A stretch of 64,000 nucleotides of DNA from an uncultured Candidatus Saccharibacteria bacterium (GTDB taxonomy: Bacteria; Patescibacteriota; Minisyncoccia; Phycocordibacterales; UBA918). A model generated the notes under the pieces. That model did no database searches and was not told the DNA's origin. It saw only the letters and a program-made list of their open reading frames with translations. A program made the translations under genes and the position numbers. Positions 5,031 through 41,268 of the stretch are shown here, one piece after another (position 1 is the first letter of the stretch; each line of letters opens with the position of its first letter). The DNA lies in the NCBI GenBank assembly GCA_964350985.1, contig CAYGLK010000001.1, forward strand, positions 228,528 through 292,527. The letters are read 5' to 3'.

Positions 5031-5102
5031 TACTTGCTGAGGGTATGTTAAGAGTACGATGTTGCCTGCAAACGTACTGTCCGGCTGAAGCCTGGGTTTT
5101 TT

Positions 5103-5135
5103 AGATATAGAAAAACCCCGGTTATTAAGCCGGGG
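5103..5135 (-). terminator. rho-independent terminator for the 5182-5892 gene
   Basis: ccccggcttaataaccgggg hairpin followed by T-run on the minus strand. Confidence 0.5.
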
Positions 5136-5181
5136 GTTACAATCGTAGTATTGGAGTAGATACCAGACTACCTGGTGCTAC

Positions 5182-5892
5182 TTAAGGACCTACGTTCTCC
5201 TTATTTTCAAAAATTGCTTCCGCGGACCACCCTCTATCCCAGAAGTTCATGGGGTAGTTGTCTCCTGTCTCCTCGAGGAGTTTTTGGCAAACCCGAGGAT
5301 CAGGGTTGGTGAGACGTTCCCTTATAACCACGAGCGCATCAAGCAGCACTGAATCATGCTGCGCGATGATTGCCAGTTCCCACACTTCATGGGAATGCTT
5401 GACCCTTGTTATAAGGGTTGGGATGAAAGGGTCACCTGTAGTGTCCCAAGGGTGCTTTGCCTCCGTCTCGAGTAAAATCTCTGACGCTTGGCGATGGTGC
5501 CAAAAGTGACGACCGATGTCCCCTGTGTTGTTCACGGCGAATGATGTTCGTGCCCCTTCGGCACTTACCTCAAACTCTCCCCACTCCGCCATTTTTTTTA
5601 TTGTTATGCAAGAGTTCAGAACCCAAACAACAAGGGTATCTCCCTTGAAGGAGATGCCGTCCGTGCCGAAGCTGTCCGTGTGACTGCGGCTGAACTCGAT
5701 GGGTGTATCATCGATCCATGCCTGTAAGGCTCTTCGGCATTCGGTGACATCCTCCTCACTTTCAAGTGGGGCAGTCGCGCACACACTGCCCGAAATCGCT
5801 TTGAAGAGATTTCGGGGGTCCGGCTTGCTTTTGAAAAAAACTTTCATTTGTTCCTCCCCACCCATCACTCGCATCAGAATTGATGCTGTCAA
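5182..5892 (-). CDS. hypothetical protein, GC-rich cargo gene
   Basis: 236 aa, about 50% GC versus about 38% flanks; Trp/His-rich; no family recognised; bracketed by 80-bp direct repeats. Confidence 0.5.
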   Translation of the reverse strand: MTASILMRVMGGEEQMKVFFKSKPDPRNLFKAISGSVCATAPLESEEDVTECRRALQAWIDDTPIEFSRSHTDSFGTDGISFKGDTLVVWVLNSCITIKKMAEWGEFEVSAEGARTSFAVNNTGDIGRHFWHHRQASEILLETEAKHPWDTTGDPFIPTLITRVKHSHEVWELAIIAQHDSVLLDALVVIRERLTNPDPRVCQKLLEETGDNYPMNFWDRGWSAEAIFENKENVGP

Positions 5893-6090
5893 TGTAGGTG
5901 TCCTGTATTCAGGACTTTATCTTATATAGACACATATAAAACAAAGTCCCAAATACAGAATTATAGAGAACACTGGTCAGAATTTTTTTAGCGTTTATAT
6001 AAAGAACGCTATATATATTGTATCATAAATATAGTCTCATGTCAAACATCGCGGCGCTAGATTCAACATTTAATGTCAATATTTAAACCA

Positions 6091-6171
6091 AAAGAAAAAA
6101 CGCCCGAAGGCGTTTTTTCTTTATGGAGATTAGATGTTCATCGCTAGAGTAGGGCTCCAACACGGGGCTGA
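6091..6171. repeat. 80-bp direct repeat copy 2
   Basis: copy of 4951-5030; overlaps the 3' end (last about 14 codons) of the 6130-6543 ORF. Confidence 0.8.
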
Positions 6172-6543
6172 GGCACTCCACGGCTGTGTTCCCTGCTTCT
6201 CATAGAGATGTCGGGCGTAGGCCATGTTCTCTTCGATCTTGTCTAAGTTGAGGTTCATAGAAATCGCTGTCTTCTCGTGGTAACGCTTGTTGATTTGCAT
6301 TACCCCAGTATCTGCTGGGTCAACCACGCCTTTCAGCACACTTCCATCCTCTAGTGTATGTCGAAACGTCGATTCACATCGAGCGATCTGGATCATCACT
6401 GGAATATCCTTGAAGTATGAACGAACAACTTGTTCGGTATCTACTACTGTTCTTGAAGTTTCCTCCACTAACGTACCGGTATTCTTGATCTGACCATAGG
6501 CCGCGTCTACGGGAATCGTTGATGAGATTGATGTCATCGACAA
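6130..6543 (-). CDS. small lytic transglycosylase-like (SLT domain) protein with N-terminal signal/TM
   Basis: catalytic-looking ARCES(T) plus GVMQIN motif typical of SLT/goose-type lysozyme fold; 137 aa. Confidence 0.45.
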   Translation of the reverse strand: MSMTSISSTIPVDAAYGQIKNTGTLVEETSRTVVDTEQVVRSYFKDIPVMIQIARCESTFRHTLEDGSVLKGVVDPADTGVMQINKRYHEKTAISMNLNLDKIEENMAYARHLYEKQGTQPWSASAPCWSPTLAMNI

Positions 6544-6692
6544 AACCGCAATGATTACGGTCGATAAAATAAGCCAATTGTCTTAACTAACAAATGTCAG
6601 CACCTAAGCTGACAACCGCAAAATGATATCACACATTACGGATATTTATGAGTATAGCATACTTTTGACTTACTGTCAATGTAGTACTGTAT

Positions 6693-8794: not shown

Positions 8795-8803
8795 AAGTGG
8801 AAA

Positions 8804-9567: not shown

Positions 9568-10158
9568 TTACCAAGGCAGTTCGAAATTTGAAAATTCGGG
9601 GAGAAGCTTTGTATTATTTAATAGTCTTGAAGCAACTTCGGCGTGTGAGAGCGCACCTGTCAGTGCGTTGTGTGGTTCTGGTTCGTCTGGGATACCGCAG
9701 TAGTTGAGTACTACGTCTAAGTTAAGTGCGCTGCGACGGTGTTGTGGGTCTATTGGTGGAGTCAGTCCCCTTTTAACCATATGCATCCAACAGAGAGTGT
9801 GAGTGTCTATTGTTCGATAAGCTAAATCCCAAGAGATTCCTGCTCGTTCGCAAGCGGCTCTAGCCATATCACGATCAAAAGAAATATTTTGACCTAGAAG
9901 AGTCCTGTCTTCCATATGTTGAGACCATTCTAAGAAAGACTGGATTAGCTCAGCTTCAGTCTGTTTATTGGGATCATTAATTTCTGCTTCAGTATAACCA
10001 TTTACTTCCATGGCACCATCCATAATATGTGCTCCATCCCAGATACGGCATTCGCCATAAAAACGATTTTCCGGATTAGAAAAATCTAAAGCTCCAATCG
10101 AGACAATAGAATGTTTTTCATAGTTTGTACCCGAAGCTTCTATGTCGATGACGATCAT
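9568..10158 (-). CDS. DEDD-family 3'-5' exonuclease
   Basis: Exo I motif VIDIEASG; Exo III-like H..A..D near the C-terminus. Confidence 0.55.
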   Translation of the reverse strand: MIVIDIEASGTNYEKHSIVSIGALDFSNPENRFYGECRIWDGAHIMDGAMEVNGYTEAEINDPNKQTEAELIQSFLEWSQHMEDRTLLGQNISFDRDMARAACERAGISWDLAYRTIDTHTLCWMHMVKRGLTPPIDPQHRRSALNLDVVLNYCGIPDEPEPHNALTGALSHAEVASRLLNNTKLLPEFSNFELPW

Positions 10159-11012
10159 ATTTTTGTAAGAGAATTATTTTTTGCTAGTAGTCTTTCATTA
10201 CTCATTTTATCATAGAGGCCAGCTAAAGCCGCTCCGTAAAAAATGATGGCTGACAAAACATACACCCAGATCAATAAGACTAAGATTAATCCAGCTCCAC
10301 CGTAGAAGTTGAGTAATGGAGTACTTACTACATAAACATAGACTAGATATTTTGCAGCCATAAATAATGTAGCTGCCACTAACGCACCGATAAGACTACT
10401 TTTCAGATTGGGACTTCGTCTGTATAGAAAGCGATATAGAAAAGTGAATAATGCAGTAGTTGAGAGGAATAATAGAATTGAATAAAAAATGGAATCATCA
10501 TTCAAGTTAAAACGGCTTAAAACAACCTGAAGTCCAATGATAGTAATAAGATAGAGTTGTAGGACAAAGATAAAACCAATTGAACGTAGGCTGCGGAAGA
10601 TCCAGCTTATTATTCCTTGGTCTTCTATGCCCCACAGTCTTTGGAAGCCAGAACTAATTACATTTAAGGCTACAACAGAGATACTGGAGAAAATAATAAT
10701 ACCGATAATTGGGATAGTAAAAGAATTTGTCTGGATCGTCAGGTTGTCGACAGCTAGACCGAGGATCTTAGCTAGATCAGGACTGAGGACTTCTCCCCAG
10801 TTAAAGAATACCTGTGCTGTAAACTCTACTCCATATATTAGACCAACTAAAGTTAGCGAGATTAGGATCAGGGGAATAATCGCCAGTGGCGCGTAGTATG
10901 AAAAAGCGGCGGCGTAGTAAACCATCTCGTGATCAATCCAAAGAAGTGCGGCTTTATATAAATTATTTAGAAATCGAAACATGCCAGTACATTCTATTGT
11001 AAACCAGGACAA
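10155..11012 (-). CDS. YihY/BrkB family membrane protein
   Basis: 285 aa, 6 TM, typical YihY topology; overlaps neighbours by 4 and 19 nt (operon). Confidence 0.55.
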   Translation of the reverse strand: MSWFTIECTGMFRFLNNLYKAALLWIDHEMVYYAAAFSYYAPLAIIPLILISLTLVGLIYGVEFTAQVFFNWGEVLSPDLAKILGLAVDNLTIQTNSFTIPIIGIIIFSSISVVALNVISSGFQRLWGIEDQGIISWIFRSLRSIGFIFVLQLYLITIIGLQVVLSRFNLNDDSIFYSILLFLSTTALFTFLYRFLYRRSPNLKSSLIGALVAATLFMAAKYLVYVYVVSTPLLNFYGGAGLILVLLIWVYVLSAIIFYGAALAGLYDKMSNERLLAKNNSLTKI

Positions 11013-11690: not shown

Positions 11691-11704
11691 CCCAAAAAGT
11701 TTAA

Positions 11705-11743
11705 GCACAAAAAACGCCAGGCTTTGCCTGGCGTTTTTTGTGC
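11705..11743. terminator. perfect 17-bp-stem palindromic bidirectional terminator, copy 1
   Basis: gcacaaaaaacgccagg-ctttg-cctggcgttttttgtgc; identical 41-mer recurs at 13788-13828. Confidence 0.8.
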
Positions 11744-11752
11744 TCTAAATAA

Positions 11753-13738
11753 CTACCACCAAATTCTGTTCCCTAACGTCTTTTTCATCTCAGCTCTGGT
11801 CATTTCTCCGAAGTAGCCGGTTGCTGGAGTGATTCCATGAATTATCTGATAGTTTGATAACGCTTTAGCTGTCTCTGGACCAAAGTAACCAGTTGCTCCA
11901 GCAGGAATAGAATAGCTTAGCGAAATTAGTAGTTCTTGTAAGGCAGTGACATCAGGACCTTCATCTTCTAGGGTTAAGTCTCGGATAGGCAAAGGTACTG
12001 GAGTGAGGTCAATGCCGGTCAGGTCTCTATATCTAGCTATAATAAGAGCAAGATCTTGTCTGAGTCGATCAAGTGTAATACTAAGTGAGATCGGGGTTGC
12101 TGGAATATTAAATTTTTCTTCAAGTTCAACGGCCGCTTCGATGTTTCCGTTGTCTCTGAGATTTTTTGCTCTGCCTTTAGCTGAAGTGCCACTGCTGCCA
12201 CTTGACTCTTTAGCTTCACGAGTGACTGTTCTGGTGGTTGTCACTGTACTAGAAGCTGCGACAACTGGACTGCCATTAAAATCAACTACTGTCCCTGAGT
12301 CAGTGACACTATAGAGTAGTTCATAGACTCCTGGATCTTCTAATACTTCTCCTGTGACTTCAATATCGTCATTGAGGTTACCGTCTTTGATGTCATTTGC
12401 TGAGACTGTGCCGAAGTCAATGGTAAAGCTGTCATTAAAATCTATTTCTACATCAAGTGGAGTCACTGTGAGATTTGGGGGGTTGTCGATGAGGGTAAGT
12501 TCGTTACCACTGACATAGCCAGAAATATTTGAGTCGGTGATGAAGACATTGCCTTCGGTTCCGGAGTTTGTTGAAGCGGTAACCCCTCTAGAATAAGAGT
12601 TTGCAAAGACCGTTGAATTTATGACCGTAACGTCTCCAGAAGCACCAGAGTAACCGTATGAACTAACGTAATTACCTATTGTTGAGTTGGTTACAATAAC
12701 ATCCCCACCGTCGTTACCGTAGGTAAAAGACGAAACACCTAAGGTCACTTCTGAGTCGGTGACAGTAACATCACCAGCATCTATACCTCCTGCTGAATAT
12801 ATGTAGCCATCTACATACGAATCGTTAACAACAATAGTCCCTCCATTTCCAGAATAACCAACAGATTGTACTTGTCCTCCAATATCAGAGCCGTAGATGC
12901 TCACAGAACCTGAATTAAGTGAACCGTCTGATTCTACATAATCAGTTACGTTAGAGTCAGTGATTTCGATATCTCCAGAGTCACCACCAGTAGCTTCAGA
13001 TTGAACTAACTCAGTTACTTCAGAATCAGAAATATCGATGTCTCCGCTACTTAAAATACCAGACGCTCTTACAGAACCTGTAACAGTTGAATTATTGGAA
13101 ATGGTGATGTTGCCAGAATTGCTAGTATCTGAAACTGAAGCTATGGAACTATTAATTATTGAGTTTTCAATTACTACATTACCAGAATCATCGCTACCTA
13201 ATGATGAAACGTTGGAAACTACACTAGAAGATACACTGGAATCAATAACAGTAATATCACCAGCTGTACCAGCACTTGCTCCAACAATTGAGTATACCCC
13301 ACCTCCAATATTTGAATTTTGAATATATATCTCTCCAGCATTACTGTCATAAGAGTATGAACTAACATAAGCCCCAACTTCTGTATTTATCACCTCAATG
13401 TCTCCAGAATTTCCTGTAGCGTTATATGATTGTACAAAACCACTAATATTCACAACATCAGTGACTACTATATTATGTCCTCCAGTACTTTGAACATTTC
13501 CATTAATACTATAAAGTCCTTGTCCATCAATAGTGATATTATTGGCAGTAATAATACAGTTACCGGCAGTGGTGGTAGATAGTTGGTAGATGGTATCTGC
13601 TTGGTCTAAATCAGTACTACAGTCTGTGACAGCAGCCACAGCTTTAGGTAGTTCCCTGTTCCAGATAAGTGCGTAGACAAATATAACTATGATAGTTGAA
13701 CTACCTAATCGAAGAATAGTCTTTTTCATATTTATCAT
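11753..13738 (-). CDS. secreted parallel-beta-helix repeat surface protein with C-terminal peptidoglycan-binding (PG_binding_1-like) repeats
   Basis: N-terminal signal/TM; more than 15 degenerate repeats of the GDI/VTVxDSxV type; C-terminus has two ...TGYFGxxTxxA... motifs. Confidence 0.6.
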   Translation of the reverse strand: MINMKKTILRLGSSTIIVIFVYALIWNRELPKAVAAVTDCSTDLDQADTIYQLSTTTAGNCIITANNITIDGQGLYSINGNVQSTGGHNIVVTDVVNISGFVQSYNATGNSGDIEVINTEVGAYVSSYSYDSNAGEIYIQNSNIGGGVYSIVGASAGTAGDITVIDSSVSSSVVSNVSSLGSDDSGNVVIENSIINSSIASVSDTSNSGNITISNNSTVTGSVRASGILSSGDIDISDSEVTELVQSEATGGDSGDIEITDSNVTDYVESDGSLNSGSVSIYGSDIGGQVQSVGYSGNGGTIVVNDSYVDGYIYSAGGIDAGDVTVTDSEVTLGVSSFTYGNDGGDVIVTNSTIGNYVSSYGYSGASGDVTVINSTVFANSYSRGVTASTNSGTEGNVFITDSNISGYVSGNELTLIDNPPNLTVTPLDVEIDFNDSFTIDFGTVSANDIKDGNLNDDIEVTGEVLEDPGVYELLYSVTDSGTVVDFNGSPVVAASSTVTTTRTVTREAKESSGSSGTSAKGRAKNLRDNGNIEAAVELEEKFNIPATPISLSITLDRLRQDLALIIARYRDLTGIDLTPVPLPIRDLTLEDEGPDVTALQELLISLSYSIPAGATGYFGPETAKALSNYQIIHGITPATGYFGEMTRAEMKKTLGNRIWW

Positions 13739-13787
13739 TATAACTTTTTTTCTAGTTTTTCTAACAACTTTTCACCAAAATTAAAAT

Positions 13788-13828
13788 ACAAAAAACGCCA
13801 GGCTTTGCCTGGCGTTTTTTGTGCTCTA
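13788..13828. terminator. palindromic terminator, copy 2
   Basis: 41 nt identical to 11705-11745. Confidence 0.8.
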
Positions 13829-17989: not shown

Positions 17990-18445
17990 TGCAATACTAT
18001 ATGAGTAACACGTTCCATTCTTTCTGTTTTGTTCTGTGTGGTTTGAGCGTTACATGTTCCTTGTTTGTCGCTGCTACAAAGTTGTTTAGAGGCGGATAGC
18101 TCTCGACAGATTTCAACCGGTATTTGGTAAAATTGTGGTCCGTGCCGGTCCGCAAACCAATCATACTGGTTTTTGATCCAGTCGTTAAAAAGATTTGTAT
18201 GTTGCTGGCGTTCGTGAAATCACGTCTGCAGCCTCTGCAAGTTGCGATTCCCTGTCTTGATTCCATGGGATTCCACTAGATTGCAGCCTTTGGTCGCAAG
18301 CTGCTAATCGAAATTTGTTTTTAAGCCGACGCTTTCAAAAACTGAAAGTAACACCTGGCAAACGCCAGTCGAGTTTGTACGATACACCCTCCGCGCACAC
18401 GAACCCCCGGTTCGGCACGCCGGGGGTTTTCTTTTTGCCAAATTT
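17990..18445 (+). ncRNA. candidate noncoding RNA (unclassified)
   Basis: strong sigma70-like TTGACA -35 at about 17971 and GC hairpin cccccgg..ccggggg + T-run at about 18405-18445 in a 630-bp convergent intergenic gap; no RNase P, tmRNA or SRP consensus found by eye. Confidence 0.3.
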
Positions 18446-18534
18446 TTTATTAGAACTGTTATTAATCTCTAAGTGCTGGTAAATAAAATTGACCATCAGT
18501 TGTCTGATATTTGCTCCATGATGAAGTCCATTTT

Positions 18535-19806
18535 TTAAATTGATGTTTTATACGTAAGTATATTCTGAAAACCTAGATCGTCGATAAATACGAGGACACC
18601 ACGACGAACAATTAATTCTTGTGCTGTAAGAGTATAACCACGTAACTCTCCAGTTTTTTCATCGTATTCAACAAAGGTATTAGGCTCTTTTCCCGTAACT
18701 CTCGTAATCAGGGGGTGTTCTGGGCTGATTAGATTGTAAATTTTCCTTCCATTACTGGTTTTGCCGACCACTTCTAGATCTGATTGAGGTATGTCCTTAA
18801 GAGAGATTTCTTGTCCTGAGGTATGAAAGCCTGTCGAATATTCCTTCGTGTTTTTGCTACCGTCGTTCCAGGTTATATCAGGAACAGGATAAGACTCTGC
18901 TGAGAATAGTTTTTTCGGTAGGTCTAATTCAAATGGTACTAAAAGGCCACCTACAGTCCTAACTGCATACATAAATATTGCTGTACCTTCTTCTGAAATG
19001 TTATAGCCTCGAAATAATGGTCCGAATTCAGTGTCTTCAATAAACTCAATAAATTCATAAGGTTCACGCTCTCCTTCAACATTAGGATTGAAACTTGAAT
19101 TAGCAAAAATTTCTGGATGCTCGAGTCTAAAAAATCTTGAACCAACAGTAAAGGTTGCTTGACCTAATGATATTTCATTTAATCTCAATGCATCAAAAGA
19201 TAAATTTTCATCTATAGATACACCTTCATGAAGTTTGTAAAAGTTAGTATTTTCGTCGAATTGGGAATGTGTCTTAATTAAACTAACATCACTTGTAGTC
19301 GTCCCTAGAAAAAACAAGTCCTCACCTATACACACAGATTCAGAGCAATCAGCGTTAACATAAACTATCGGTTTGTCATTGAAATTTCCGATTTGAAAAT
19401 AATAGGATATCTGATCAATATAATCGCCATCTGCGTCTATGTATTTGTTTTCAGTTATTAAACCTAAATCACCAAGAGGTACTGGATTTAAAAACCATTC
19501 AATGCCGGGTTCCCTATTTATATTTTTATAGTAAATAGAATAGTCAGTGTTATCTGGGTAAATATATCTAGTCACTTCAGTCGCAGCTGTGTCGTTGCTG
19601 TCTCTAAGTGACGATCTCCATGATTCAGAATTCTCAGTATTAATACCAGTATCTCTTGTTGTGATTACAAGAAAAGCTAAAATCGCAATAACACATACAG
19701 TTCCAACGACAACTAAAGTAGACAAAGATTTTTTTGGCTTGAAAGATGAAGCGGACTCTTCTGTTGCGGTTTCTGGAGCGTGTTGTTCTTGCATGTAATT
19801 TAACAA
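18535..19806 (-). CDS. membrane-anchored extracellular protein, unknown function
   Basis: N-terminal single TM then about 370-aa Asn/Tyr-rich ectodomain. Confidence 0.4.
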   Translation of the reverse strand: MLNYMQEQHAPETATEESASSFKPKKSLSTLVVVGTVCVIAILAFLVITTRDTGINTENSESWRSSLRDSNDTAATEVTRYIYPDNTDYSIYYKNINREPGIEWFLNPVPLGDLGLITENKYIDADGDYIDQISYYFQIGNFNDKPIVYVNADCSESVCIGEDLFFLGTTTSDVSLIKTHSQFDENTNFYKLHEGVSIDENLSFDALRLNEISLGQATFTVGSRFFRLEHPEIFANSSFNPNVEGEREPYEFIEFIEDTEFGPLFRGYNISEEGTAIFMYAVRTVGGLLVPFELDLPKKLFSAESYPVPDITWNDGSKNTKEYSTGFHTSGQEISLKDIPQSDLEVVGKTSNGRKIYNLISPEHPLITRVTGKEPNTFVEYDEKTGELRGYTLTAQELIVRRGVLVFIDDLGFQNILTYKTSI

Positions 19807-19951
19807 TAATTTTTAATATAGCTAATCATATATTGTAAATGGTACAAAAACCACACTGATAAAAATAGGTCACAAAAGTTTAAAACTTGACTAACTCTAA
19901 TTTTAATAGTAAAGTTTTGTCAGCTGTTCCCTACCTACATGGAGATATCTC

Positions 19952-20257
19952 ATGCAAAACAGCAAGGTGTCCTTGCTCAAAAAGTTTCTTGCTGACTACA
20001 GTCTGCCGATTGCGGCAGCCTTCGTCATCGCGGTGGTTAGCATGATCGCCGCCTGTACCGTCTCCGGCACGAAAGAGTGTGGCTATGAACTCGTTGTCAC
20101 AAGAGTTCAGACAAGCAGCGCTCTGGGACATCAATTGCCGGAGCAGGCCTACCTCGTTCTTGAGCGACCAATTATCGTTCAGATGGAGGGCACTTCGGAG
20201 GGTCAGAGGTTCGTCCTGAATGGCTGCAATGTTCTGCCGCTGCCTGAAGAGCGCTGA
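19952..20257 (+). CDS. small putative lipoprotein/secreted protein (GC-rich islet)
   Basis: signal-like N-terminus with Cys (IAACTVSG); about 52% GC; antisense ORF 19931-20134 judged spurious. Confidence 0.35.
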   Translation: MQNSKVSLLKKFLADYSLPIAAAFVIAVVSMIAACTVSGTKECGYELVVTRVQTSSALGHQLPEQAYLVLERPIIVQMEGTSEGQRFVLNGCNVLPLPEER

Positions 20258-20431
20258 TTTAATCTTTTAGCATGGTCCACTGCCCAAGCCGTCTGAGTTC
20301 ATACTCGGCGGCTATTGTTTTATCTAAATTTCAATATAAATAAAGCTATTTCACTATGCACACTTTGCACAGGGCTGTGTAAAAACTGCAAAAACTGACT
20401 AGTCTCTATTCGTGATACAATCTACCTACTT

Positions 20432-25024: not shown

Positions 25025-25061
25025 TTTTACCGGTTTTGGCTGTGTCGACCAACCAGCCCAC

Positions 25062-25145: not shown

Positions 25146-25222
25146 TATTATCTCAAAAGATCTGTATCTAACAACAGCTATGCTTATCTCATTCTATCTC
25201 TGCACTTTGACAAGGAATAAAG

Positions 25223-26086
25223 ATGAAAAATATAAATTGGAACGTTCTTTGGGACATTCTCTGCGAAGACATCAGTAGCAAGAATCTGAGGGGTCCAGAA
25301 ATTGTCAATTGGCAAAAGGTCTGCTTGTTTCACGCGTCTCTCCAGGCCATCGGAGTAATGTTTCTCTTTGCTTTAGGGGAAGCAAGCTATATCCCGGTAA
25401 TTGCAGGCCTGTTGTTTCTCTTAGCTGGCATAGCACCTACTGTGCTGGCATTTGCTTTGGATCTTTCGACAGTCGTGTCGGAGAGAGTACCTTCTTTTTT
25501 GGCACGAGCCAAAATGACTATCGGTCAATGGCGTCAGCAAAAGCGAACAGCTAAACATTTTGAGACACTCGGACAAAGAAAAATCAGTCCATATGTCTCA
25601 ATGGAGGGATCAATTGATCTGACGTCCATGTCGCAGTTGTTGGCAATTTGTCGCTCAGTTGTCCAGCAGCATTTCCGGTCACTTACTCTGGAGGAGCAGA
25701 TTTCCCTGATCGAAGTCTCGCACAAGTTTAAGGAAGGAAAGAAAGAAGTGATTTCGGTCACTGTCACCTTCCTTTATGAACGCAGTTTGAAAGTCCGTCG
25801 TGACGGCGTCGATCGTGATGTGCTAGTGCACTCCGGTCACACTATTCAGCTTTTTCCAGACGGGACAAGGATCGTTGACATTGAGCACGTGCTCTCGCAA
25901 GGCACCAGGATGCTGAGCGGTTTAGACGATGTACGAGCGCACGTCTTGAACGTAGCTCACCGACTGCTGGATAATGACATCGACGTCGGTTCGGCCGAAA
26001 AAGATGCGTCGTCCGTGGTGATGTTGGCTTCAATGCCAACTGGCCAAAGTCGGAAGAGCTCATCTTCAGATTCTGTTCTTGAGTAG
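25223..26086 (+). CDS. 2-TM protein with about 190-aa soluble C-terminal domain, paralog A
   Basis: about 52% GC; shares a block (VTVTFLYERSLKVRRDGVDRDVLVHSGH) with paralog B (VTVVTFVYRRCEQTVEDGVSHDRLVASAH). Confidence 0.5.
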   Translation: MKNINWNVLWDILCEDISSKNLRGPEIVNWQKVCLFHASLQAIGVMFLFALGEASYIPVIAGLLFLLAGIAPTVLAFALDLSTVVSERVPSFLARAKMTIGQWRQQKRTAKHFETLGQRKISPYVSMEGSIDLTSMSQLLAICRSVVQQHFRSLTLEEQISLIEVSHKFKEGKKEVISVTVTFLYERSLKVRRDGVDRDVLVHSGHTIQLFPDGTRIVDIEHVLSQGTRMLSGLDDVRAHVLNVAHRLLDNDIDVGSAEKDASSVVMLASMPTGQSRKSSSSDSVLE

Positions 26087-26114
26087 CCGGCACCGCTGGC
26101 TACTCACCACCATT

Positions 26115-26197
26115 GATCGCCGCTCTCCACGAGCGGCGGTCTTTCTTTTTTTCTTTTAAATATTAGTCGCAAATATTGACTTTAGGTATAATTTATG
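26115..26197 (+). promoter_or_regulatory. cassette junction module R2
   Basis: about 97% identical to R1. Confidence 0.7.
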
Positions 26198-26281
26198 CTA
26201 TAAACTAAATAGCAATTGTATTAAACCAGCACCCCGCTGTTTTTTGAATCGATCTTTAACAACAAACCTAGGAGGTGTCAG

Positions 26282-27070
26282 ATGAGTATCACTGGCGATT
26301 TTTATGAGGAGAGGTCAGACGACCTGGACACAAAGGAAGGAGGGCTGTTGTTATCGGTTCTTATTCTTTGGTTTGGCGCTGGAGTTGCTGCATGGCTAAG
26401 CTCTGATCCTGTGACTGGGTTTCAGACGGTCCTTCATGTTGTGAGCAGTTTCCTCTTCTTTCTCCCGTTCATCCCACTCATTGTTACTATACCGGCCGAT
26501 TTCTTGGTCGGTGTGCGTAATCATATCGACGGATGGTGGAATGACATCCAAGGATTCCTTGGGTCACGTCGGAGAAAAAAAATGGAATCTAGTACGCTTG
26601 AGCGGCTTGATCCAAGCAAGATTGAGCCGCACATTTCGAGTCCCTTGCCGGACCTGGGCAACGCTACTCACCTCAAGGAGATCTGTGTTGAGATTGTCCT
26701 GGATCAGTTGGGACGTAAGCTGGTCAGGGATGAGGAGGTTTATGTCCTCAGTTCTGAGCCGAAACCAGGTGGCAAAGTGACTGTTGTCACTTTTGTCTAC
26801 CGTCGGTGCGAACAGACGGTAGAGGACGGCGTCAGTCACGACCGTTTGGTTGCGTCGGCACATGTGGTCAGGCTTTTGCTCAACAGCTTGGCTAAGTGTG
26901 TCGACATATCTTGGGTCACTTCACTCACTCATAAGGAATTGGGTGATCTGGAGGATCCGGAGAGCTTTGTGACCAACGTCACCCAGAGGCTGGAAGGAGA
27001 CTTGCTGCCATGTTCGGCTGTACCAGCTACAGTCAGAAGCATGACTTCCAGGATTCCTCTCTCTGAGTGA
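26282..27070 (+). CDS. 2-TM protein, paralog B
   Basis: RBS ggaggtg; same architecture as paralog A and a homologous C-terminal domain. Confidence 0.5.
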   Translation: MSITGDFYEERSDDLDTKEGGLLLSVLILWFGAGVAAWLSSDPVTGFQTVLHVVSSFLFFLPFIPLIVTIPADFLVGVRNHIDGWWNDIQGFLGSRRRKKMESSTLERLDPSKIEPHISSPLPDLGNATHLKEICVEIVLDQLGRKLVRDEEVYVLSSEPKPGGKVTVVTFVYRRCEQTVEDGVSHDRLVASAHVVRLLLNSLAKCVDISWVTSLTHKELGDLEDPESFVTNVTQRLEGDLLPCSAVPATVRSMTSRIPLSE

Positions 27071-27105
27071 TTGCTCTCGTCTTGCGATGCTCGCGCACCG
27101 CCCCC

Positions 27106-27185
27106 GATCGCCGCTCTCCTCGAGCGGCGATTTTCTTTATTTAAATATTGGATGCAAACATTGACTAAATACATATTTTATAATA
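27106..27185 (+). promoter_or_regulatory. cassette junction module R3 (degenerate)
   Basis: gatcgccgctctcctcgagcggcga + T-run + ttgact, diverged from R1/R2. Confidence 0.55.
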
Positions 27186-27213
27186 TAAAATATCAAGTTC
27201 CTTAATTTTCAAT

Positions 27214-27267
27214 GATGAGACGAGCGAATTGCGGCTTATTTTATAGGCCTTAGCTCGCTCGTCTCAT
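27214..27267. other. long hairpin (11-bp stem gagacgagcga / tcgctcgtctc, about 29-nt loop) upstream of the repeat-peptide gene
   Basis: seen directly. Confidence 0.5.
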
Positions 27268-27314
27268 TCTGGACAAGTCGTTGCCGAACGGTTTTCGGTA
27301 TTGAGGACCATCAC

Positions 27315-27518
27315 ATGAACCAAAGCTTAAACCACCAACCGACGCTGGATCAGCTGGTTGCAAACGGTGAGCCTTTCCATGGCTTCTACCCGAAGCCGGC
27401 ACCTCAACCGCTGGTTGCAAACGGTGAGCCTTTCCATGGCTTCTACCCGAAGCCAGCGGCTCCGCCACCGGGACAGGATTGCTTCGACTACGTGACCCGC
27501 CCGATATTTGACGAATAG
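27315..27518 (+). CDS. small Pro/Gly-rich peptide with internal 19-aa tandem duplication (LVANGEPFHGFYPKPAxxP x2)
   Basis: 57-bp DNA tandem repeat at 27353-27397 and 27410-27455; GC-rich. Confidence 0.3.
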   Translation: MNQSLNHQPTLDQLVANGEPFHGFYPKPAPQPLVANGEPFHGFYPKPAAPPPGQDCFDYVTRPIFDE

Positions 27519-27642
27519 CGGCGTTCTTGCTATTCGAAATCGGACTGCTTTCATCTCATTCATTTGGGGTGGGCAGTCCATTTTTTATATTTCAATCAAA
27601 ATCTCCCTCTGTGATATAATTTCAATATTAAATTTGTTTTAT

Positions 27643-28272: not shown

Positions 28273-28374
28273 GTTCACTAAACTAGCGCTATTGACAACA
28301 CCTATAAAAATCGGTACTTTATGGAAGAAAAAGTTCCAATCCGTCCCAGTAGGGACTTTGAACGGAGTCAGGCC

Positions 28375-28980
28375 ATGAAAGCCAATAGTTATTTGATAGC
28401 GTTATTTCTCCTCGGGCTGATGTTTGGGCACGAGGCCTTCGCCGCTGAAGTGGAGTCAAAACCACAGGACGAGGTTGTGACTAGTACTGGCGAAAGATTT
28501 CAGTACTGCTCTGCCGACCGATGTTTGAGTGAGGGAGAAAAAGTAATTGTCTTACCCTCACGGTGCGAGTACGTCAGGCAGTCACTCTTCTTCCAGCAGA
28601 AGAACTGCTACTCGGCTGAAGTGGTGTATGTCACAGAAGCAGATCTGGTACGTGAAACTTCTGTTGCAGAAAAGCCAGAACACGTAATTCGAGTCCCTAT
28701 AGTGGTGGTGATGTTATCAATGATGCTGATGGTAGCAACGATGTTATTGATACGGTTTGAGCCAAGGGCCGAATCTCTCTCCTTCATCGCCTTTATGGCC
28801 ACCAGCGCTGCTCTCCTATTCACTTTAACTGAACCCACATCTCCTGTATTTGCTGTCTTAGGCGGCTGCATTGCCTCCGTCGCCGCCACCGCCACCGCCG
28901 ATCTAACAAAATTAAGATCGTTCTATACTTTCGCGACCATACACTTGGTCTCGATGACGAGTTATCTGTATTTGGCTTAG
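28375..28980 (+). CDS. secreted/membrane protein, unknown (GC-rich islet)
   Basis: signal peptide MKANSYLIALFLLGLMFGHEAFA, Cys-containing ectodomain, 2-3 C-terminal TM helices; about 50% GC. Confidence 0.4.
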   Translation: MKANSYLIALFLLGLMFGHEAFAAEVESKPQDEVVTSTGERFQYCSADRCLSEGEKVIVLPSRCEYVRQSLFFQQKNCYSAEVVYVTEADLVRETSVAEKPEHVIRVPIVVVMLSMMLMVATMLLIRFEPRAESLSFIAFMATSAALLFTLTEPTSPVFAVLGGCIASVAATATADLTKLRSFYTFATIHLVSMTSYLYLA

Positions 28981-29038
28981 TAAGATCCACCAAATCAAGA
29001 TCGCTTTCGCCGTCCTGCTCATGCAGGGCGGTTTTCTT

Positions 29039-33968: not shown

Positions 33969-34040
33969 GGTCCCATCGTCTAACGGTCAGGACATCAGGT
34001 TTTCATCCTGGAAATCGGAGTTCGATTCTCCGTGGGATCA
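33969..34040 (+). tRNA. tRNA-Glu (anticodon UUC)
   Basis: hand-folded cloverleaf: acceptor ggtccca/tgggatc, anticodon loop ttTTCat, T-arm cggag-ttcgatt-ctccg; followed by a terminator hairpin gcaccc-gttt-gggtgc + T-run. Confidence 0.75.
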
Positions 34041-34218
34041 CGAGTACAAAAATGCGCACCCGTTTGGGTGCCATTTTTGTACGTGACCCAAGAGAAAAGT
34101 GCATTTGCACTTTTCGTGAGAATCGAACCGCCGGAGCGATGTGAGCTTGCGAACGAGTGAGGTGTATCCCGCGGCACTTGCTAATTTATGAGTGGAACGA
34201 AATAAACTAGCTTTGTGA

Positions 34219-34244
34219 CCGTCAGGATCATTCTCCGTGGGATC
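34219..34244 (+). repeat. duplicated tRNA-Glu 3'-end fragment (att-like scar)
   Basis: ccgtcagga..attctccgtgggatc reproduces 8 nt of the D-loop plus the last 15 nt of the tRNA. Confidence 0.5.
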
Positions 34245-34303
34245 TAATTTAAAAAAGGACCCAGACCTAAGCCTGGGTACCCTTCACCAACAATGGTGAT
34301 GTT

Positions 34304-35143
34304 TCAACGGTTCGGAGTAACTCGCAAAAGCCGCACTGACACAATTTCGTAGTTGATCACCCCAAGGATTGCACCGGTGACGGCGCCAATGATGGCGCTG
34401 CCAAACGAGTATCCAATGACAGCGCCAATCGTTGCATCAACGAAACAGACTGTACGTCGTTGTGAGTGGATGAAGACAAACACACTAACGGCAAATTGGG
34501 AGGTTGCCCGCCACACTTCGCGCCCTCTTGTGATTACAGTTGGCACCGCGCGTTTGATTGCTGGCGGCGACTCTACTGCAGCCTTCTTCAATCCGCGCAA
34601 GGCTGCAACTGTCACAGCGATTGGATTGAATTTGAGAAACAGGCTCTTTCCTGTCTCAACGATAGAACTAAGTAGCTCGTCACGCCTAGCCGGGCTAGCG
34701 TCCTTCTCGGATTGCAAAATCATAGCTATTACACCCCAGGCGTAGAGAACTGCAAACGCTGAAATCCATAGCACGCAATACAACGTGAACAAAATACCCG
34801 ACATAGGAATGTCGTCATTGAAAAACACAAACACTGGGCAGACAAGAGCTGACAAAGAACAAACTGTCGTGACTGTGCCGCCTGCGAATGTTCCGAAGGC
34901 CTTCCACCAAAGCCGATCAGGGCGCCAGGTGATCGTGCTGTGGTATGAGTGAGCAACTCCGGAGCAGAAGTGCCTAAAGTCGATCGCGACGTATGCCGCG
35001 ATACCGCCAGCTAGTGCACCAATGCCCCACAGACTTGATCCATACTCGAATCTTATCGAGATCTCAAGAGCCGTCAATGTGCCGATGAGAGCGCCGAGAG
35101 CACACGCAAAGGCGATCGAAAGCCAACCACTTGTCATCTTCAT
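34304..35143 (-). CDS. polytopic membrane protein, unknown (GC-rich islet, about 53% GC)
   Basis: 279 aa, 6-8 hydrophobic helices; antisense ORFs judged spurious. Confidence 0.45.
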   Translation of the reverse strand: MKMTSGWLSIAFACALGALIGTLTALEISIRFEYGSSLWGIGALAGGIAAYVAIDFRHFCSGVAHSYHSTITWRPDRLWWKAFGTFAGGTVTTVCSLSALVCPVFVFFNDDIPMSGILFTLYCVLWISAFAVLYAWGVIAMILQSEKDASPARRDELLSSIVETGKSLFLKFNPIAVTVAALRGLKKAAVESPPAIKRAVPTVITRGREVWRATSQFAVSVFVFIHSQRRTVCFVDATIGAVIGYSFGSAIIGAVTGAILGVINYEIVSVRLLRVTPNR

Positions 35144-35357
35144 GGTTTCCTCTACTTTTCTTATCTAGGCACATGCCTAGATTTCTATAATTTTATACCA
35201 CACTTAATCTAACCCTTCAATAGCTACGTAATAGTTCGATATCTAGGTGACCGTCATCACATTGTTGTCATGACGATCTTCTGCGCCACCGACGAATGAA
35301 CTCAACGCCGGTGCGTCACCCCCCGCATATTTGCGGATGTTGTTGTTTATTACATCT

Positions 35358-35812
35358 TTTACAATCCGGTTCCAATTCGTACTACATAGGGTCACAGAGG
35401 TAAGAAAATAACCACAAAGCAAATGCTTTGTGGTTATTTTCTTAGCAAAGCAACTTGAGTCGCTTGCGGCCTCTGTGACAGACGGAGACATGTTTTGACT
35501 ATTCCTAATGTCAAAACAACCGAGTCCGGGTAGGTGAGAAATGGGACTGTCACAATTATTTAAAACGTTAAAATTCCACACTTGTTTTACAATCCAGTTT
35601 CAATTCGTACTACATAGGGCCACACAGGTATAAACAAAGGCACTACTTCTTAAGAAGCAGCGTTTTGTTTAATAGAAAGCAAATGACTTTGCTTTCGTAC
35701 CGATGTGATTAGCGGAGCGATCTTTTCTGCTCTTCCCTAAAGCAGAAAAGGAGTGAGCTGGGTGAGAAATGGGCTTGGACCTATTTCGCAAGACTCATTG
35801 AGGTATATTTTG
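35358..35812. repeat. two tandem about 228-bp noncoding units, each with a conserved 46-mer (ttttacaatccRgtTYcaattcgtactacataggg..cacaSaggta) and different hairpins
   Basis: 46-mers at 35358-35403 and 35585-35630; ggtgagaaatggg at 35533 and 35761; terminator-like hairpins aaccacaaagc-aaat-gctttgtggtt and cttcttaagaag. Confidence 0.6.
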
Positions 35813-36033
35813 AATTTATGAAAAATTACCCAATGAGTGGACAGAATCTGTAAGATTCGAGAACGCTTAGTAGAATCTGCACGAAGTGTAAGATTATACT
35901 TAGTAACTCGTGACCACAATTACACAATAAATTATTGAAATATTGTCTCTGTCCCCTTTTACTCTAAACTGAAAGAGTAAAACAATTTTGTAATCGATTA
36001 AAAAGATCTTTTGATGAAACTTTAATCCTCTTT

Positions 36034-37303: not shown

Positions 37304-37338
37304 TTTTAGAGAATCGAACTTCAACAAGGAGAGTTCCG

Positions 37339-38483: not shown

Positions 38484-38588
38484 AATATAGATTCTAGCAG
38501 GTTGGCAAGTCGCAAGAAAGCCTTAATTGAAATTAAAAAACCATGGGACACTTTCGCGTCCTCATGGTTGCTGGCCTCATGAACCTTG

Positions 38589-38807
38589 TCAGAGTTGGTG
38601 CAGGAAGCGGTTGATTCGTTCCTGATCCTTCTCTTTCCATTGCTCGTAAGTCAGTCCGCCGGAGCCAACTGGATTTGAGCAGGGTTGTCTACCTTTCTGC
38701 CCCCATCCTCCTGGAGTAGAATCCTCCGCTCCGCAGTTGACACAGACGGCGTCACGAAGTGACGAGTCCGAAAAACGTGTTACGTGGCTTGGGTGTAGCT
38801 CATTCAT
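38589..38807 (-). CDS. small GC-rich ORF, possible zinc-ribbon peptide
   Basis: CVNCG...C; about 55% GC; weak. Confidence 0.2.
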   Translation of the reverse strand: MNELHPSHVTRFSDSSLRDAVCVNCGAEDSTPGGWGQKGRQPCSNPVGSGGLTYEQWKEKDQERINRFLHQL

Positions 38808-38943
38808 GTTGCTCTCCTTGCACGGTAAATAACTGCAAATTTATCGTATATCAACATGTCTTCCGTGTAAAGTTTTTGAGTTTTGACAAAAGACTCTCTG
38901 TTGTTAGTATAAATATATTACTCCTCACTAAATAAATCTAAAT

Positions 38944-39483
38944 ATGCATACAAAATACGATCTAGAAACGGTAAAAGCATTAGTAGTTGTCTCAGCTAAG
39001 GAACACGGAAAGATATACGTCCTTGAAAATGGAGGCCTTAAAGGATTGTCGTACACAGAAGAACATCCGCCTACATACAGTGATAATGAAGGATTCTTAA
39101 CTCGTTCAACTGGAGGTCAACAACTAGGAAGTGGTAACGTGCTAGAAGATGCCGATGAACATAATTTACAGAAGTACATAAAAGCAATTACTACAGAATT
39201 GCGTGAAGTCGTCTTGAAGCATTCGCCGGAAGTTGTTTTTGTGATTGAACCAGAACATCTAAAGGGTCAGATAAAAACAAACTTAGTGGTTGATAATAAG
39301 ACTGCGGTAGAAGAGATTGCTTATGGTAACTATGTAGAAAAAGACACAGAAGTGATTTTTGATCTGGTACGTAAAGCTTTGACTGAAAGTAAAGATCCGA
39401 CTGACCCAGACTCAGTAGCTGCCGGAGAAAACGCTGAAGAAAAAAGAAAAATTCTAGAAGTTGGAAAAGAAGTTTCCGGGTAA
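38944..39483 (+). CDS. hypothetical protein
   Basis: 179 aa, acidic, no recognised motif. Confidence 0.35.
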   Translation: MHTKYDLETVKALVVVSAKEHGKIYVLENGGLKGLSYTEEHPPTYSDNEGFLTRSTGGQQLGSGNVLEDADEHNLQKYIKAITTELREVVLKHSPEVVFVIEPEHLKGQIKTNLVVDNKTAVEEIAYGNYVEKDTEVIFDLVRKALTESKDPTDPDSVAAGENAEEKRKILEVGKEVSG

Positions 39484-39676
39484 TTTGTAACTGAAACAAA
39501 AATAAAAAAACCACGCAACGAGGTTGCGGGCTGTTTCTCTCGAATCCTTTGATTGAGAGACTGCTTTTGAATTGTAAATCAAGTTTAGGTGTTCGGCGGG
39601 AACGGACTTTCGATCCGTCCCGCCGAACATTTGGCTGGCTTAGCTACTCACATGTAGCTTTGCCGACCAGCAGTGG

Positions 39677-40276
39677 TCAGACCAGGTCTGCGTTGGCGCG
39701 AAGCATTGCTTCGGGCGTGTACTTTCCGCCGGTGATCTCGAAGAGATCTCCGCCAGGCTGAAGCCGCGGCATGAGATGCTCGTAGGTCTTGCCGATGATG
39801 TGCGATTCGGTGACCAGATCGTTGGCAGTGATCACGATCCCGTGCATGCCCAGGTACTGCTCGGGCGAGACCAAGAGTCCAGCGTCGGTGAGTGCGTTCT
39901 GCACGCCGAACTTGATGGTCTGCTCGATGCGGTCCTGCGTCGTGGCTGCCACTTCGAGTGCGGCCATCTTCAGCGGATTGTAGGTATCCGCGTCGCGGAA
40001 AACCATGATCTTGACCGGTGGATTGACCATCCGGACCAACTTGTTCATGCCGCCGGAAATGTCGCTCACGATGACCGGACTGATGTTTCCGAAACGCTCG
40101 CTGATCGGGGCTTCAACCGCACCGATGCGTATGCCGTCGTGGTTCTTGAGACCGATCTGCTGGTCGATGTCACAATCGGTGATATTGGTAACCATGAGAT
40201 CGCCGGCGAACGAGGTGGCAGAAACGCCCGAAATCAGAGCGGCCACAATGAATGTGGCCAGGGTATTCTTTTGCAT
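39677..40276 (-). CDS. secreted protein, unknown (GC-rich island, about 58% GC)
   Basis: signal peptide MQKNTLATFIVAALISGVSATSFA; antisense 39776-40282 ORF judged an artefact of the high GC. Confidence 0.45.
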   Translation of the reverse strand: MQKNTLATFIVAALISGVSATSFAGDLMVTNITDCDIDQQIGLKNHDGIRIGAVEAPISERFGNISPVIVSDISGGMNKLVRMVNPPVKIMVFRDADTYNPLKMAALEVAATTQDRIEQTIKFGVQNALTDAGLLVSPEQYLGMHGIVITANDLVTESHIIGKTYEHLMPRLQPGGDLFEITGGKYTPEAMLRANADLV

Positions 40277-40539
40277 GGTTGATTCCTTGAATGATAGTCG
40301 AATGCCCCTGCGACGAAATGAAAGCCTCGTAGCAAGTAGCAGGATAAGTACCTAAAAAGATACACATTCTGCTACTCGCTACTATCTAAACTTGATTTGT
40401 GAAAGAGCTAAACAAAATTGGCTCGCTTGAGCCGACGAGAAATATAGCACGTATTAAATCTATGTCAAGCGGTTTTTACTGTGTTTAAAAAACACCCGGC
40501 CTCTTTCGAGTACCGGGTTAACTTTGGGGTTTTGTACCA

Positions 40540-41214
40540 TCACCGTCTTGCTCGATTTCGTTCTGCTCGTGCCAAGCGTGCGGCACTCGGCTGCCCTCCT
40601 TTTTTCTTTACCCTCTTGTTGTAGGCTTTCCGTTCGTTGCGGAATTTTCGTACAAACGGCATTGCCTCTTCTGGCATACAGTCATCCCACCCGAGGTTTA
40701 CTCGTTTGGCGTGCCTGAAGCAGCGCCAGAAACGCGATCCAATGCCACCACCCCGTACTATTTGCATAAACCTTCCACATTCGGGACATTGTGGACGGTT
40801 TTGTATTCTCACCTGGGCAATGGCTGCGCAGAGGCGTAAGCGGTACAAGAAGTTCTCAGTGCGATTCATTGGGTGGGAAAAATACAGAACTTCATTCCCT
40901 CGCTTGATGAGGACCCAGCCATTGTCACTGTCTCGAGCTTGCTCCATCGATTCGATGTAGCTTGTCCAGACAATTACTGTTAGACCCTTGGTCCTGAATA
41001 TGAAACCGACTTCCCGCTGGTCATGAGTCTCGGGAGGAATATCTGATTCTTTCACACCCTCCTCTCTTGCAACAATGTCCGGCCTCCTTTTCTTGCGGGC
41101 AATCCTCTTAAACCCTCTTTTCAACATTTTCCTTTCAAACTCTTGGAACCTTTCCTTGCCGAATAGGACTAGCGCTGGCATTTGCCTTCTCCACAAAGAG
41201 CACGAACAATACAA
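40540..41214 (-). CDS. Arg/Lys-rich protein with CPECG...C zinc-ribbon, possibly DNA-binding (transposase/phage-like remnant?)
   Basis: CPECGRFMQ...RFWRC; C-terminal KRVKKKGG..RARR tail; GC-rich. Confidence 0.35.
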   Translation of the reverse strand: MYCSCSLWRRQMPALVLFGKERFQEFERKMLKRGFKRIARKKRRPDIVAREEGVKESDIPPETHDQREVGFIFRTKGLTVIVWTSYIESMEQARDSDNGWVLIKRGNEVLYFSHPMNRTENFLYRLRLCAAIAQVRIQNRPQCPECGRFMQIVRGGGIGSRFWRCFRHAKRVNLGWDDCMPEEAMPFVRKFRNERKAYNKRVKKKGGQPSAARLARAERNRARR

Positions 41215-41268
41215 TAATCCTGATTTTCTCTATTGTAAAGATTATTATTGCTTGATAGATAGCTAAAC

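Follow-up and report, generated by a model that had tools for sequence, protein, structure and literature searches.

The 64-kb stretch of contig CAYGLK010000001.1 analysed here (the window; all positions are counted from its first nucleotide) carries eight short GC-rich islets in a low-GC backbone, and these islets are probably horizontally acquired accessory genes that occupy variable slots, with other Patescibacteria as the donors on several occasions. The host genome is that of a Paceibacteria/Kaiserbacteria-like Parcubacterium, small, low in GC and belonging to the candidate phyla radiation (CPR). The islets are unlike the host backbone both in base composition and in codon usage, and they are absent from the syntenic positions of close relatives.

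Composition of the Islets

In a 300-nt sliding scan of the window, the overall GC of which is 40.2%, the median GC was 39.7% with a robust standard deviation (sd) of 4.4%. All eight segments that the initial annotation of this DNA had picked out as GC-rich were raised, by roughly 2 to 4.5 robust sd, and are real features of the sequence, while the range of about 50–58% assigned to them was a little high, the measured values being 47–55%. The segments, numbered here as islets 1 to 8, have GC contents of 50.2% (5036–5900), 50.9% (19900–20300), 47.2% (23100–23400), 47.5% (24700–27600), 47.5% (28300–29000), 50.6% (34300–35200), 54.7% (38600–38800) and 51.0% (39500–41220). The fourth is composite, with peaks of 50–53%, and the highest 400-nt window, at 39.6–40.0 kb, reaches 59.5%. 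Additional raised GC was found outside these segments at 6.05–6.6 kb, where a 137-aa gene with a GC of 0.48 is located, and at 34.04–34.3 and 37.4–37.8 kb.

At the codon level the islets are set off even more clearly, and their synonymous codon choice differs strongly from that of the backbone. The GC content at third codon positions (GC3) is 0.51–0.77 in the open reading frames (ORFs) of the islets versus a median of 0.33 (sd 0.043) in 14 conserved genes. CTG and CTC together account for 48% of the Leu codons in the islets versus 16% in the backbone; the corresponding fractions are 20% versus 4% for TCG among the Ser codons and 15% versus 4% for CGG among the Arg codons. The GC-normalised dinucleotide distance (delta*) between the pooled islets and the backbone is 99.8, which lies outside a size-matched backbone null of 27 ± 10 with a maximum of 76.

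Two trivial sources of the GC peaks were considered and rejected. The native membrane proteins of the window (MFS, FtsX and the protein encoded at 10155–11012) have GC3 at the native level, and the amino-acid content of membrane proteins is therefore not the cause of the peaks. Structured RNA, a frequent origin of GC peaks in AT-rich genomes, does not account for them either: ARAGORN and Rfam at the gathering threshold reported the tRNA-Glu gene (33969–34041) alone, and Rfam run over all of the islets at E values up to 1 added only sub-threshold terminator look-alikes.

Islets and the Conserved Gene Order

A scan with the RmuC protein encoded in the window gathered 80 related loci from metagenome-assembled genomes of Paceibacteria, Kaiserbacteria and other Parcubacteria. 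The nearest RmuC proteins are 88% (locus L002) and 85% (L006, Parcubacteria bacterium OLB19) identical to that of the window, and a common gene order links the window to L002, L006, L007, L008, L010 and L017. Against this order the islets stand out as gaps. The genes for CysRS and DnaB, 60–96 nt apart in the relatives, are separated by 2.5 kb in the window, the insert consisting of a low-GC gene for a 423-aa protein and of islet 2. Similarly, 3.0 kb (islet 4) lie between RmuC and the YqeY-like gene versus 41–193 nt in the relatives. In the L21/RmuC, YqeY/TruB and tRNA-Glu slots each relative has different, unrelated ORFs. A tblastn search of the 80 related loci with the islet ORFs gave no match, and, the gene order being conserved, the islets therefore occupy variable slots of a stable backbone. 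They are spread over at least six separate slots, between which the backbone is otherwise collinear. The proposal of the initial annotation that small foreign genes were acquired repeatedly is supported by these gaps, by the lack of homologues in the 80 loci and by the codon and dinucleotide differences described above.

The 423-aa gene next to islet 2 (within 17997–19806) has a GC of 0.36 and a GC3 of 0.26, which is below the backbone; a hydrophobic segment can be seen by eye at the N terminus of its product, and no family match was obtained for it. With islet 2 being GC-rich and this neighbour GC-poor, one slot has therefore gathered cargo of opposite compositional bias.

Coding Potential and Predicted Products

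The larger islet ORFs are coding sequences. Stop-free runs of 212–291 codons occur in seven islets and are reached by no more than 1 of 1000 shuffled sequences (none of 1000 in the case of the 238-codon run of islet 1 and of the 284-codon run of islet 6), and the codon-position GC profiles of the islet ORFs are gene-like. The homologues of the 199-aa protein of islet 8 are encoded on the same strand, and the ratio of nonsynonymous to synonymous substitution rates (dN/dS) in this family is 0.25–0.40, which indicates purifying selection on the homologues. The shuffles, the codon profiles and the dN/dS values together led us to reject chance ORFs and antisense shadows for the large ORFs, so that the antisense artefacts against which the initial annotation had cautioned are not what these ORFs represent. 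For four short ORFs, of 101, 83, 67 and 72 aa, length alone gives no individual significance; the support for them comes only from ribosome-binding sites, promoters and terminators noticed on reading the sequence.

No recognisable family had been noted for the islet products, and this held for the 10 ORFs that were compared with Pfam, PHROGs, PADLOC and NCBIfam, none of which gave a match; the PADLOC result means in particular that the models of known defence proteins were not encountered. A PDB sequence search with two ORFs returned nothing significant, and exact-sequence look-ups of three islet proteins did not find them on record, probably because start codons are called differently. The initial annotation had further ascribed signal peptides or transmembrane (TM) helices to every islet. 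This stands for 8 of the 12 ORFs, in which TM helices or an N terminus resembling a signal peptide are found, but not for the remaining 4 (5182–5847, 27315–27518, 38589–38807 and 40540–41214), the products of which look soluble. The sole hint as to function is that most products are of a membrane or secreted type.

The private terminators that had been attributed to the islets were found as well. In islet 4 a hairpin with a T run follows each of cassettes A, B and C, and the same holds for the ORFs of islets 5, 6 and 7; further hairpins, downstream of the islet 1 and islet 2 ORFs, were seen by direct reading, and islet 8 has candidate terminators at 39514–39528 and 40420–40433, the first about 150 nt beyond its stop codon.

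Islet 1 and the 661-aa Gene: Direct Repeats of Terminator Regions

Islet 1 lies between two direct repeats of 80 nt, both on the reverse strand. The right one (6091–6171) comprises the genuine 3' end of the 137-aa gene (6130–6543, reverse strand; GC3 0.52) and its terminator, this gene being the source of the repeat sequence, and the left one (4951–5030) contains a terminator and a copy of the last 42 nt of this gene. The two are 97% identical over an aligned core of 58 nt (6114–6171) and contain exactly matching blocks of 22, 25 and 26 nt; their spacing is 1140 nt. The 137-aa gene has homologues in three related loci and no Pfam match. The islet itself encodes a soluble 221-aa protein (5182–5847, reverse strand; GC 0.51, GC3 0.55–0.56), the frame being open to 5892 from an upstream TTG; GGAGG precedes the ATG at 5847, and a promoter-like TTGACA/TATGAT pair can be read directly at about 6020–6075. 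Among 5.8 billion proteins the 221-aa sequence matched only itself, and a search of the PLSDB plasmids, for which it was the sole ORF used, gave no match.

A related arrangement surrounds a native-GC insert on the reverse strand (11704–13825) with the gene for a repeat-rich 661-aa surface protein (11753–13738), which contains the peptidoglycan-binding domain PG_binding_1. The gene is flanked by palindromic bidirectional terminator copies (11704–11748 and 13781–13825) that are 87% identical, and it is missing in the relatives, where the convergent L27 and PPIase genes are adjacent and a single junction is present. The signature of terminator duplication thus recurs at three sites in the window, islet 4 being the third. 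The six longest families of direct repeats in the window measure 57–98 nt; five of them flank or punctuate accessory inserts, and the sixth is a tandem repeat within cassette D of islet 4. Four further repeat pairs are shorter and weaker (31–39 nt, 71–74% identity).

The Cassette Array of Islet 4

Islet 4, flanked by the RmuC gene and the YqeY-like gene, consists of four units, A to D, all on the forward strand, each junction between them combining a terminator hairpin with a T run and a promoter-like site. Cassette A (24773–25024) encodes a hydrophobic protein of 83 aa and is followed by a terminator at 25062–25088. Cassette B (25223–26086; 287 aa, GC3 0.51) encodes two TM helices and a C-terminal alpha/beta domain, and the product of cassette C (26282–27070; 262 aa, GC3 0.55) belongs to the same family. 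Cassette D (27315–27518; 67 aa, GC3 0.63) has a soluble-looking product and is of uncertain coding status, the length of its ORF alone being not significant against shuffles. It contains a 57-nt tandem repeat (27320–27433) that encodes a duplicated 19-aa peptide (LVANGEPFHGFYPKPA...), and an imperfect inverted repeat of 34 nt is present just upstream of this tandem repeat, at 27206–27276.

The 98-nt core (25062–25159) of the first junction, J1 (25052–25159), is 94% identical to the second, J2 (26105–26212); the third, J3 (27096–27192), is a more diverged copy with 74–79% identity. The identity between B and C is only 30%, while B is 38% identical to the protein P0009 and C 43% to P0008, both from other genomes. 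A recent duplication of B and C in place is ruled out by these values, each being nearer to another genome's protein than to its neighbour. With such similar junctions beside ORFs so far diverged, the junctions therefore appear to be shared or homogenised by recombination.

The B/C family comprises 13 members: B, C and 11 further representatives found among 1.84 billion proteins. A confident AlphaFold2 model of cassette C built on the 13-sequence alignment (predicted local distance difference test score, pLDDT, of 80.6) contains two TM helices, a long helix and a domain of one helix plus four strands, and Foldseek with the family model yielded weak NTF2/SnoaL-like matches alone (best E 5e-3). 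A tandem pair of this family with repeated junctions was also found on an unrelated contig (L091). One metagenome scan with the junction hairpin pattern and one with the family pattern found nothing. In other GC-rich islands, no junction-type repeats were seen in L082 or L056, and L058 has one short repeat pair.

The tRNA-Glu Slot

The gene for tRNA-Glu (UUC) at 33969–34041, on the forward strand, marks a slot for integration. The 15 nt at its 3' end (34025–34039) are repeated exactly on the same strand at 34230–34244 as an att-like scar. The window contains two matches to this 15-nt sequence, a number not reached in any of 100 shuffles. The partial tRNA repeat is present, but it bounds only about 190 nt and no third copy was found. 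In L002 and L006 a large serine recombinase gene abuts the same tRNA-Glu gene, and there is none in the window; the element at this position in L006 has a GC of 47–51% versus 39% in its host. Downstream of the tRNA, accessory genes of low and of high GC are intermingled in a mosaic over 34.0–41.3 kb, with no recombinase among them. The mosaic includes islet 6 (34304–35143, reverse strand; GC 0.52, GC3 0.54), which encodes a polytopic membrane protein of 279 aa with several TM-like segments and has its terminator at 34259–34278.

Some further details of this slot may be recorded. The recombinase and tRNA-Glu genes are located at L006:1953–3656 and L006:3618–3690, and at L002:1860–3350 and L002:3287–3361; in both loci the recombinase ORF extends into the 3' half of the tRNA gene on the opposite strand, and the final residues of the L006 recombinase, PRRIEL, are encoded by the tRNA T-arm. 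In the window, the sequence GAGAATCGAACC (within 34100–34160), placed between tRNA-Glu and the 15-nt partial copy, resembles by eye the reverse complement of a tRNA T-arm and could be a piece of a further attachment site derived from a tRNA.

Islet 8 and the 199-aa Family

Islet 8 contains two ORFs on the reverse strand. The first (39677–40276), which encodes a 199-aa protein with a signal-peptide-like N terminus, is the most GC-rich ORF of all (GC 0.58, GC3 0.77) and is preceded by a promoter-like TTGACA-16-TATATT at 40441–40468. Two clusters of homologues with 60–62% identity were found, both represented by GC-rich genes on low-GC, Patescibacteria-like contigs. A structure model of the 199-aa protein was unusable (pLDDT 43). 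The second ORF (40540–41214; 213–224 aa depending on the start, GC 0.50) encodes a basic, soluble-looking protein with a CxxC zinc-ribbon-like motif. Only the sequence itself was recovered when the 213-aa version was compared with the 5.8 billion proteins. Its similarity to Zn_ribbon_recom is sub-threshold (17.9 bits, the cut-off being 25.3), and its identification as a relic of a large serine recombinase was rejected as not significant (BLASTP E 0.5–1.5, hhalign E 0.12), which leaves it as no more than a lead.

A similar picture is presented by other Patescibacteria contigs (L082:3579–10730 and 13310–13702; L086:323–910 and 4170–4553). A 7-kb GC-rich island of ORFs without recognisable relatives (ORFans) follows tRNA-Val in L082, and L082 and L086 each have a second GC-rich ORF in the same MurB/TGT slot, the two being only 30% identical, with synonymous sites of the backbone saturated.

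Remaining Islets and Other Elements

Islet 2 encodes, on the forward strand (19952–20257; GC 0.54, GC3 0.64), a 101-aa protein that is lipoprotein-like by eye, with a TM-like segment at residues 11–41; a promoter-like TTGACT-17-TAAAGT is located at 19887. Islet 3, the weakest, contains a 94-aa ORF on the reverse strand (23119–23403; GC 0.48, GC3 0.60) with TM-like segments, about two helices being predicted. The ORF of islet 5 (28321–28980, forward strand; 219 aa, GC3 0.53) has a likely start at 28376, with GGAG ahead of it, a promoter-like TTGACA at 28292 and a terminator at 29009–29032. From 28376, its product is predicted to have a signal-peptide-like N terminus, an ectodomain and three TM helices. 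The same slot in L002 (7732–8397) encodes a 221-aa protein of matching architecture at native GC. Both proteins have a signal peptide, an ectodomain of about 100 aa and three TM helices, but sequence similarity between them was not detectable; the pair may reflect either replacement by an analogue or extreme divergence. Islet 7 (38589–38807, reverse strand; GC 0.53) encodes a soluble 72-aa product and is of uncertain coding status, its ORF length being not significant; AAGGAG can be read ahead of the ATG, and a terminator is located at 38546–38561.

Two further features lie beyond islet 6. An element of about 100 nt (35765–35860) is also found at L036:9872–9985, at L021:12985–13095 (reverse strand) and at about 12211–12237 of L080 (reverse strand), with 70–93% DNA identity and at different intergenic positions in the four genomes. 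RNAalifold folds it into two or three hairpins in which 8 of 32 pairs show compensatory two-sided changes, no Rfam match was obtained, and it may be an undescribed small RNA of Paceibacteria. In the variable region that follows islet 6, two copies of another, conserved sequence (35352–35444 and 35580–35674), 81% identical over 64 nt, each precede a different hairpin; the first hairpin has a stem of 21 bp without mismatches and a z-score of −5.5 for folding.

Discussion

Most of the islets are complete small transcription units, each with an AT-rich promoter, one ORF and a hairpin terminator, and most encode small membrane-anchored or exported proteins to which no function can be assigned; a role at the cell surface may be supposed from this character. 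Their sources are most likely other Patescibacteria whose genomes have a GC of at least about 50%, contributing on several separate occasions, and not one high-GC donor. The single high-GC donor suggested by the initial annotation is hard to reconcile with islets that vary from 47 to 58% in GC and from 0.51 to 0.77 in GC3, with homologues on Patescibacteria-like contigs and with a relative that is native at 51% GC. That relative is P0008, the gene of which (GC 52%, GC3 0.54) matches the housekeeping genes of its own 51% GC contig. We infer the donor group from such placements: four ORFs or families were searched for homologues, and the two that have relatives have all of them on Patescibacteria-like contigs. 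The related loci span 30–56% GC. Across about 60 of them the median difference in GC3 between lineage-specific ORFs and their host is about 0, with outliers on both sides: 13–16% of these ORFs in low-GC genomes lie above +0.12, and 13–19% in high-GC genomes lie below −0.12. The leaning of the outliers to intermediate GC fits an exchange among relatives of different GC.

As to the way of entry, Campbell-type or junction-mediated recombination would place a cassette between direct repeats of a local terminator region, as may have happened at islet 1, in the islet 4 array and at the 661-aa gene; in the case of islet 1, single-crossover integration of a circle carrying a copy of the target would leave repeats of the kind observed. 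Site-specific integration at the 3' end of tRNA-Glu could have provided a second route, of which the window would retain the 15-nt partial tRNA repeat and a 7-kb mosaic of cargo.

Several observations weigh against an origin of the islets by acquisition from GC-richer Patescibacteria. There is no integrase, transposase or phage gene in the 64-kb window, and the insertion mechanism is therefore deduced from the repeats only; clear flanking repeats are in turn found at islet 1 and at none of islets 2, 3, 5, 7 and 8. For two of the four ORFs or families that were searched, the 5.8 billion proteins contain no homologue, and a donor is identified for one family only, by composition and not by phylogeny. 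The 199-aa family presents the greatest difficulty. Its three known copies have GC3 values of 0.77–0.90 in backbones of 0.28–0.44, and no copy was found in any GC-rich genome. The third-position identity of the window copy to each of the other two is 0.63 and 0.61, where random codon choice would give 0.59 and 0.52, so that synonymous divergence is nearly saturated. Such a pattern is not what one would predict from a simple, recent import with subsequent amelioration. In the three genomes concerned, the slots may be refilled from an unsampled GC-rich reservoir, or the high GC3 may be maintained in the low-GC hosts.

The latter idea can be extended to the islets in general, which would then be long-term resident or circulating genes whose high GC3 is maintained by selection on mRNA or codons or by GC-biased gene conversion at hot spots. 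The near-random third positions and persistent GC3 of the 199-aa family would follow naturally, a second GC-rich ORF recurs in the same MurB/TGT slot of L082 and L086 at low identity, and the conserved junctions between diverging ORFs suggest frequent recombination. We nevertheless consider this explanation unlikely: most lineage-specific ORFs in the approximately 60 loci have native GC3, with the outliers directed toward intermediate GC, one member of the B/C family is native in a 51% GC genome, the sample comprises only three genomes, and repeated import into one and the same slot accounts for these facts as well. A related form, about which we are slightly less doubtful, supposes that some of the islets belong to a Patescibacteria-wide pool of single-gene envelope-protein cassettes, each having a promoter and a terminator of its own, that move by recombination at duplicated terminator/junction modules and in which selection or biased gene conversion preserves a high GC3 over long periods within low-GC hosts; high GC would then be a property of the pool and not the fading mark of an import. 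Quite improbable, in our opinion, is the derivation of the islets from a GC-rich host or neighbour outside Patescibacteria, in the service of host interaction or defence. The membrane-anchored or exported nature of most products and the elevation of islet GC well above the backbone would suit such a donor, and the two ORFs or families without homologues leave a source open, but every homologue that could be placed is on a Patescibacteria-like contig and none comes from a GC-rich genome outside the CPR, there were no matches in PADLOC, Pfam or NCBIfam, and the spread of GC3 among the islets speaks against one donor.

Whether the islets might be decayed remains of one prophage or of one family of integrative elements, scattered by rearrangement, has to be asked in view of the tRNA-Glu scar, of the serine recombinase that the relatives have in that slot, of the L006 element that is GC-richer than its host and of the weak zinc-ribbon resemblance of the basic 213-aa protein to recombinases. 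A distribution over at least six slots of a collinear backbone is not what rearrangement of one element would be expected to produce, and the link of the 213-aa protein to recombinases is not significant. A viral source was rejected: no PHROG match was obtained, no phage hallmark proteins were found, and four IMG/VR scans and a search of a phage collection were empty, revealing no similarity to viral contigs. Decay of a single element is thus very improbable. Least credible, to the point of being negligible, is an artefact, that is, chimeric assembly with reads of GC-richer organisms, or ORFs that are due to chance or are antisense shadows. In its favour are the origin of the sequence from a metagenome-assembled genome and the four short ORFs that are not significant by length, but an independent Logan contig reproduces 13799–22565, islet 2 included, at 100% identity. 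The islet borders coincide with promoters, ribosome-binding sites and terminators, the long ORFs surpass the shuffles, the homologues of the 199-aa protein are under purifying selection, and islet 1 is linked to its surroundings by the direct repeats on either side.

Horizontal gene acquisition is already known in Patescibacteria, and the current picture of their gene transfer is unchanged by our data. From the point of view of acquisition from within Patescibacteria, which we prefer, the window shows, gene by gene, how a very small genome of the episymbiont type gains envelope proteins while its conserved gene order is left undisturbed, and it provides concrete coordinates for the insertion scars. 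Candidates for a wider survey are two small families seemingly confined to Patescibacteria, namely the 13-member family with TM helices and an alpha/beta domain and the exported 199-aa protein, as well as the terminator-duplication signature and the persistence of high GC3 in the 199-aa family in three low-GC hosts.

Some parts of the window can be compared with known systems. Cis-mobilisable or integrase-less elements bounded by att repeats (CIME-like elements) and Campbell-type integration offer the nearest parallel to islet 1, a short insert whose 80-nt direct repeats restore the 3' end of the gene targeted. In contrast to them, neither a recombinase nor an excised circle has been observed here, and homologous recombination could also give the repeat. 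Islet 4 recalls the cassette arrays of integrons in its tandem single-gene units of the same orientation, in the repeated, hairpin-containing junction and in ORFs that are far more diverged than the junctions. In contrast to integrons, there is no adjacent IntI, no recombinase domain having been found in the window; the junction is an intrinsic terminator with a promoter-like site and not attC; and each cassette has its own promoter-like site, whereas integron cassettes are promoterless.

In the streamlined genomes of Prochlorococcus, tRNA-linked islands have been described that contain degraded, stacked integrations (bioRxiv 10.1101/2020.12.28.424599). The tRNA-Glu slot resembles these tycheposons in being a tRNA-adjacent island with partial tRNA copies as the remnants of integration and in the build-up of cargo in the same slot. 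The integrases of tycheposons include large serine recombinases, whereas here such a recombinase is present only in the relatives; the window has neither an integrase nor a replication gene, and most of the islets are not adjacent to a tRNA. On the scale of the whole group, a recent study (PMC12455944, mSystems 2025) reports hundreds of genomic islands and gene transfers in Patescibacteria, mostly among Patescibacteria themselves. The likeness to our case is twofold: regions of atypical composition in a streamlined CPR genome are attributed to horizontal transfer, and the predominance of transfer within Patescibacteria matches the placement of the homologues found here. The islets of the window may be distinguished by their very small size (0.3–3 kb, often one gene), by consisting almost wholly of ORFans and, in some cases, by the direct repeats of terminator regions.

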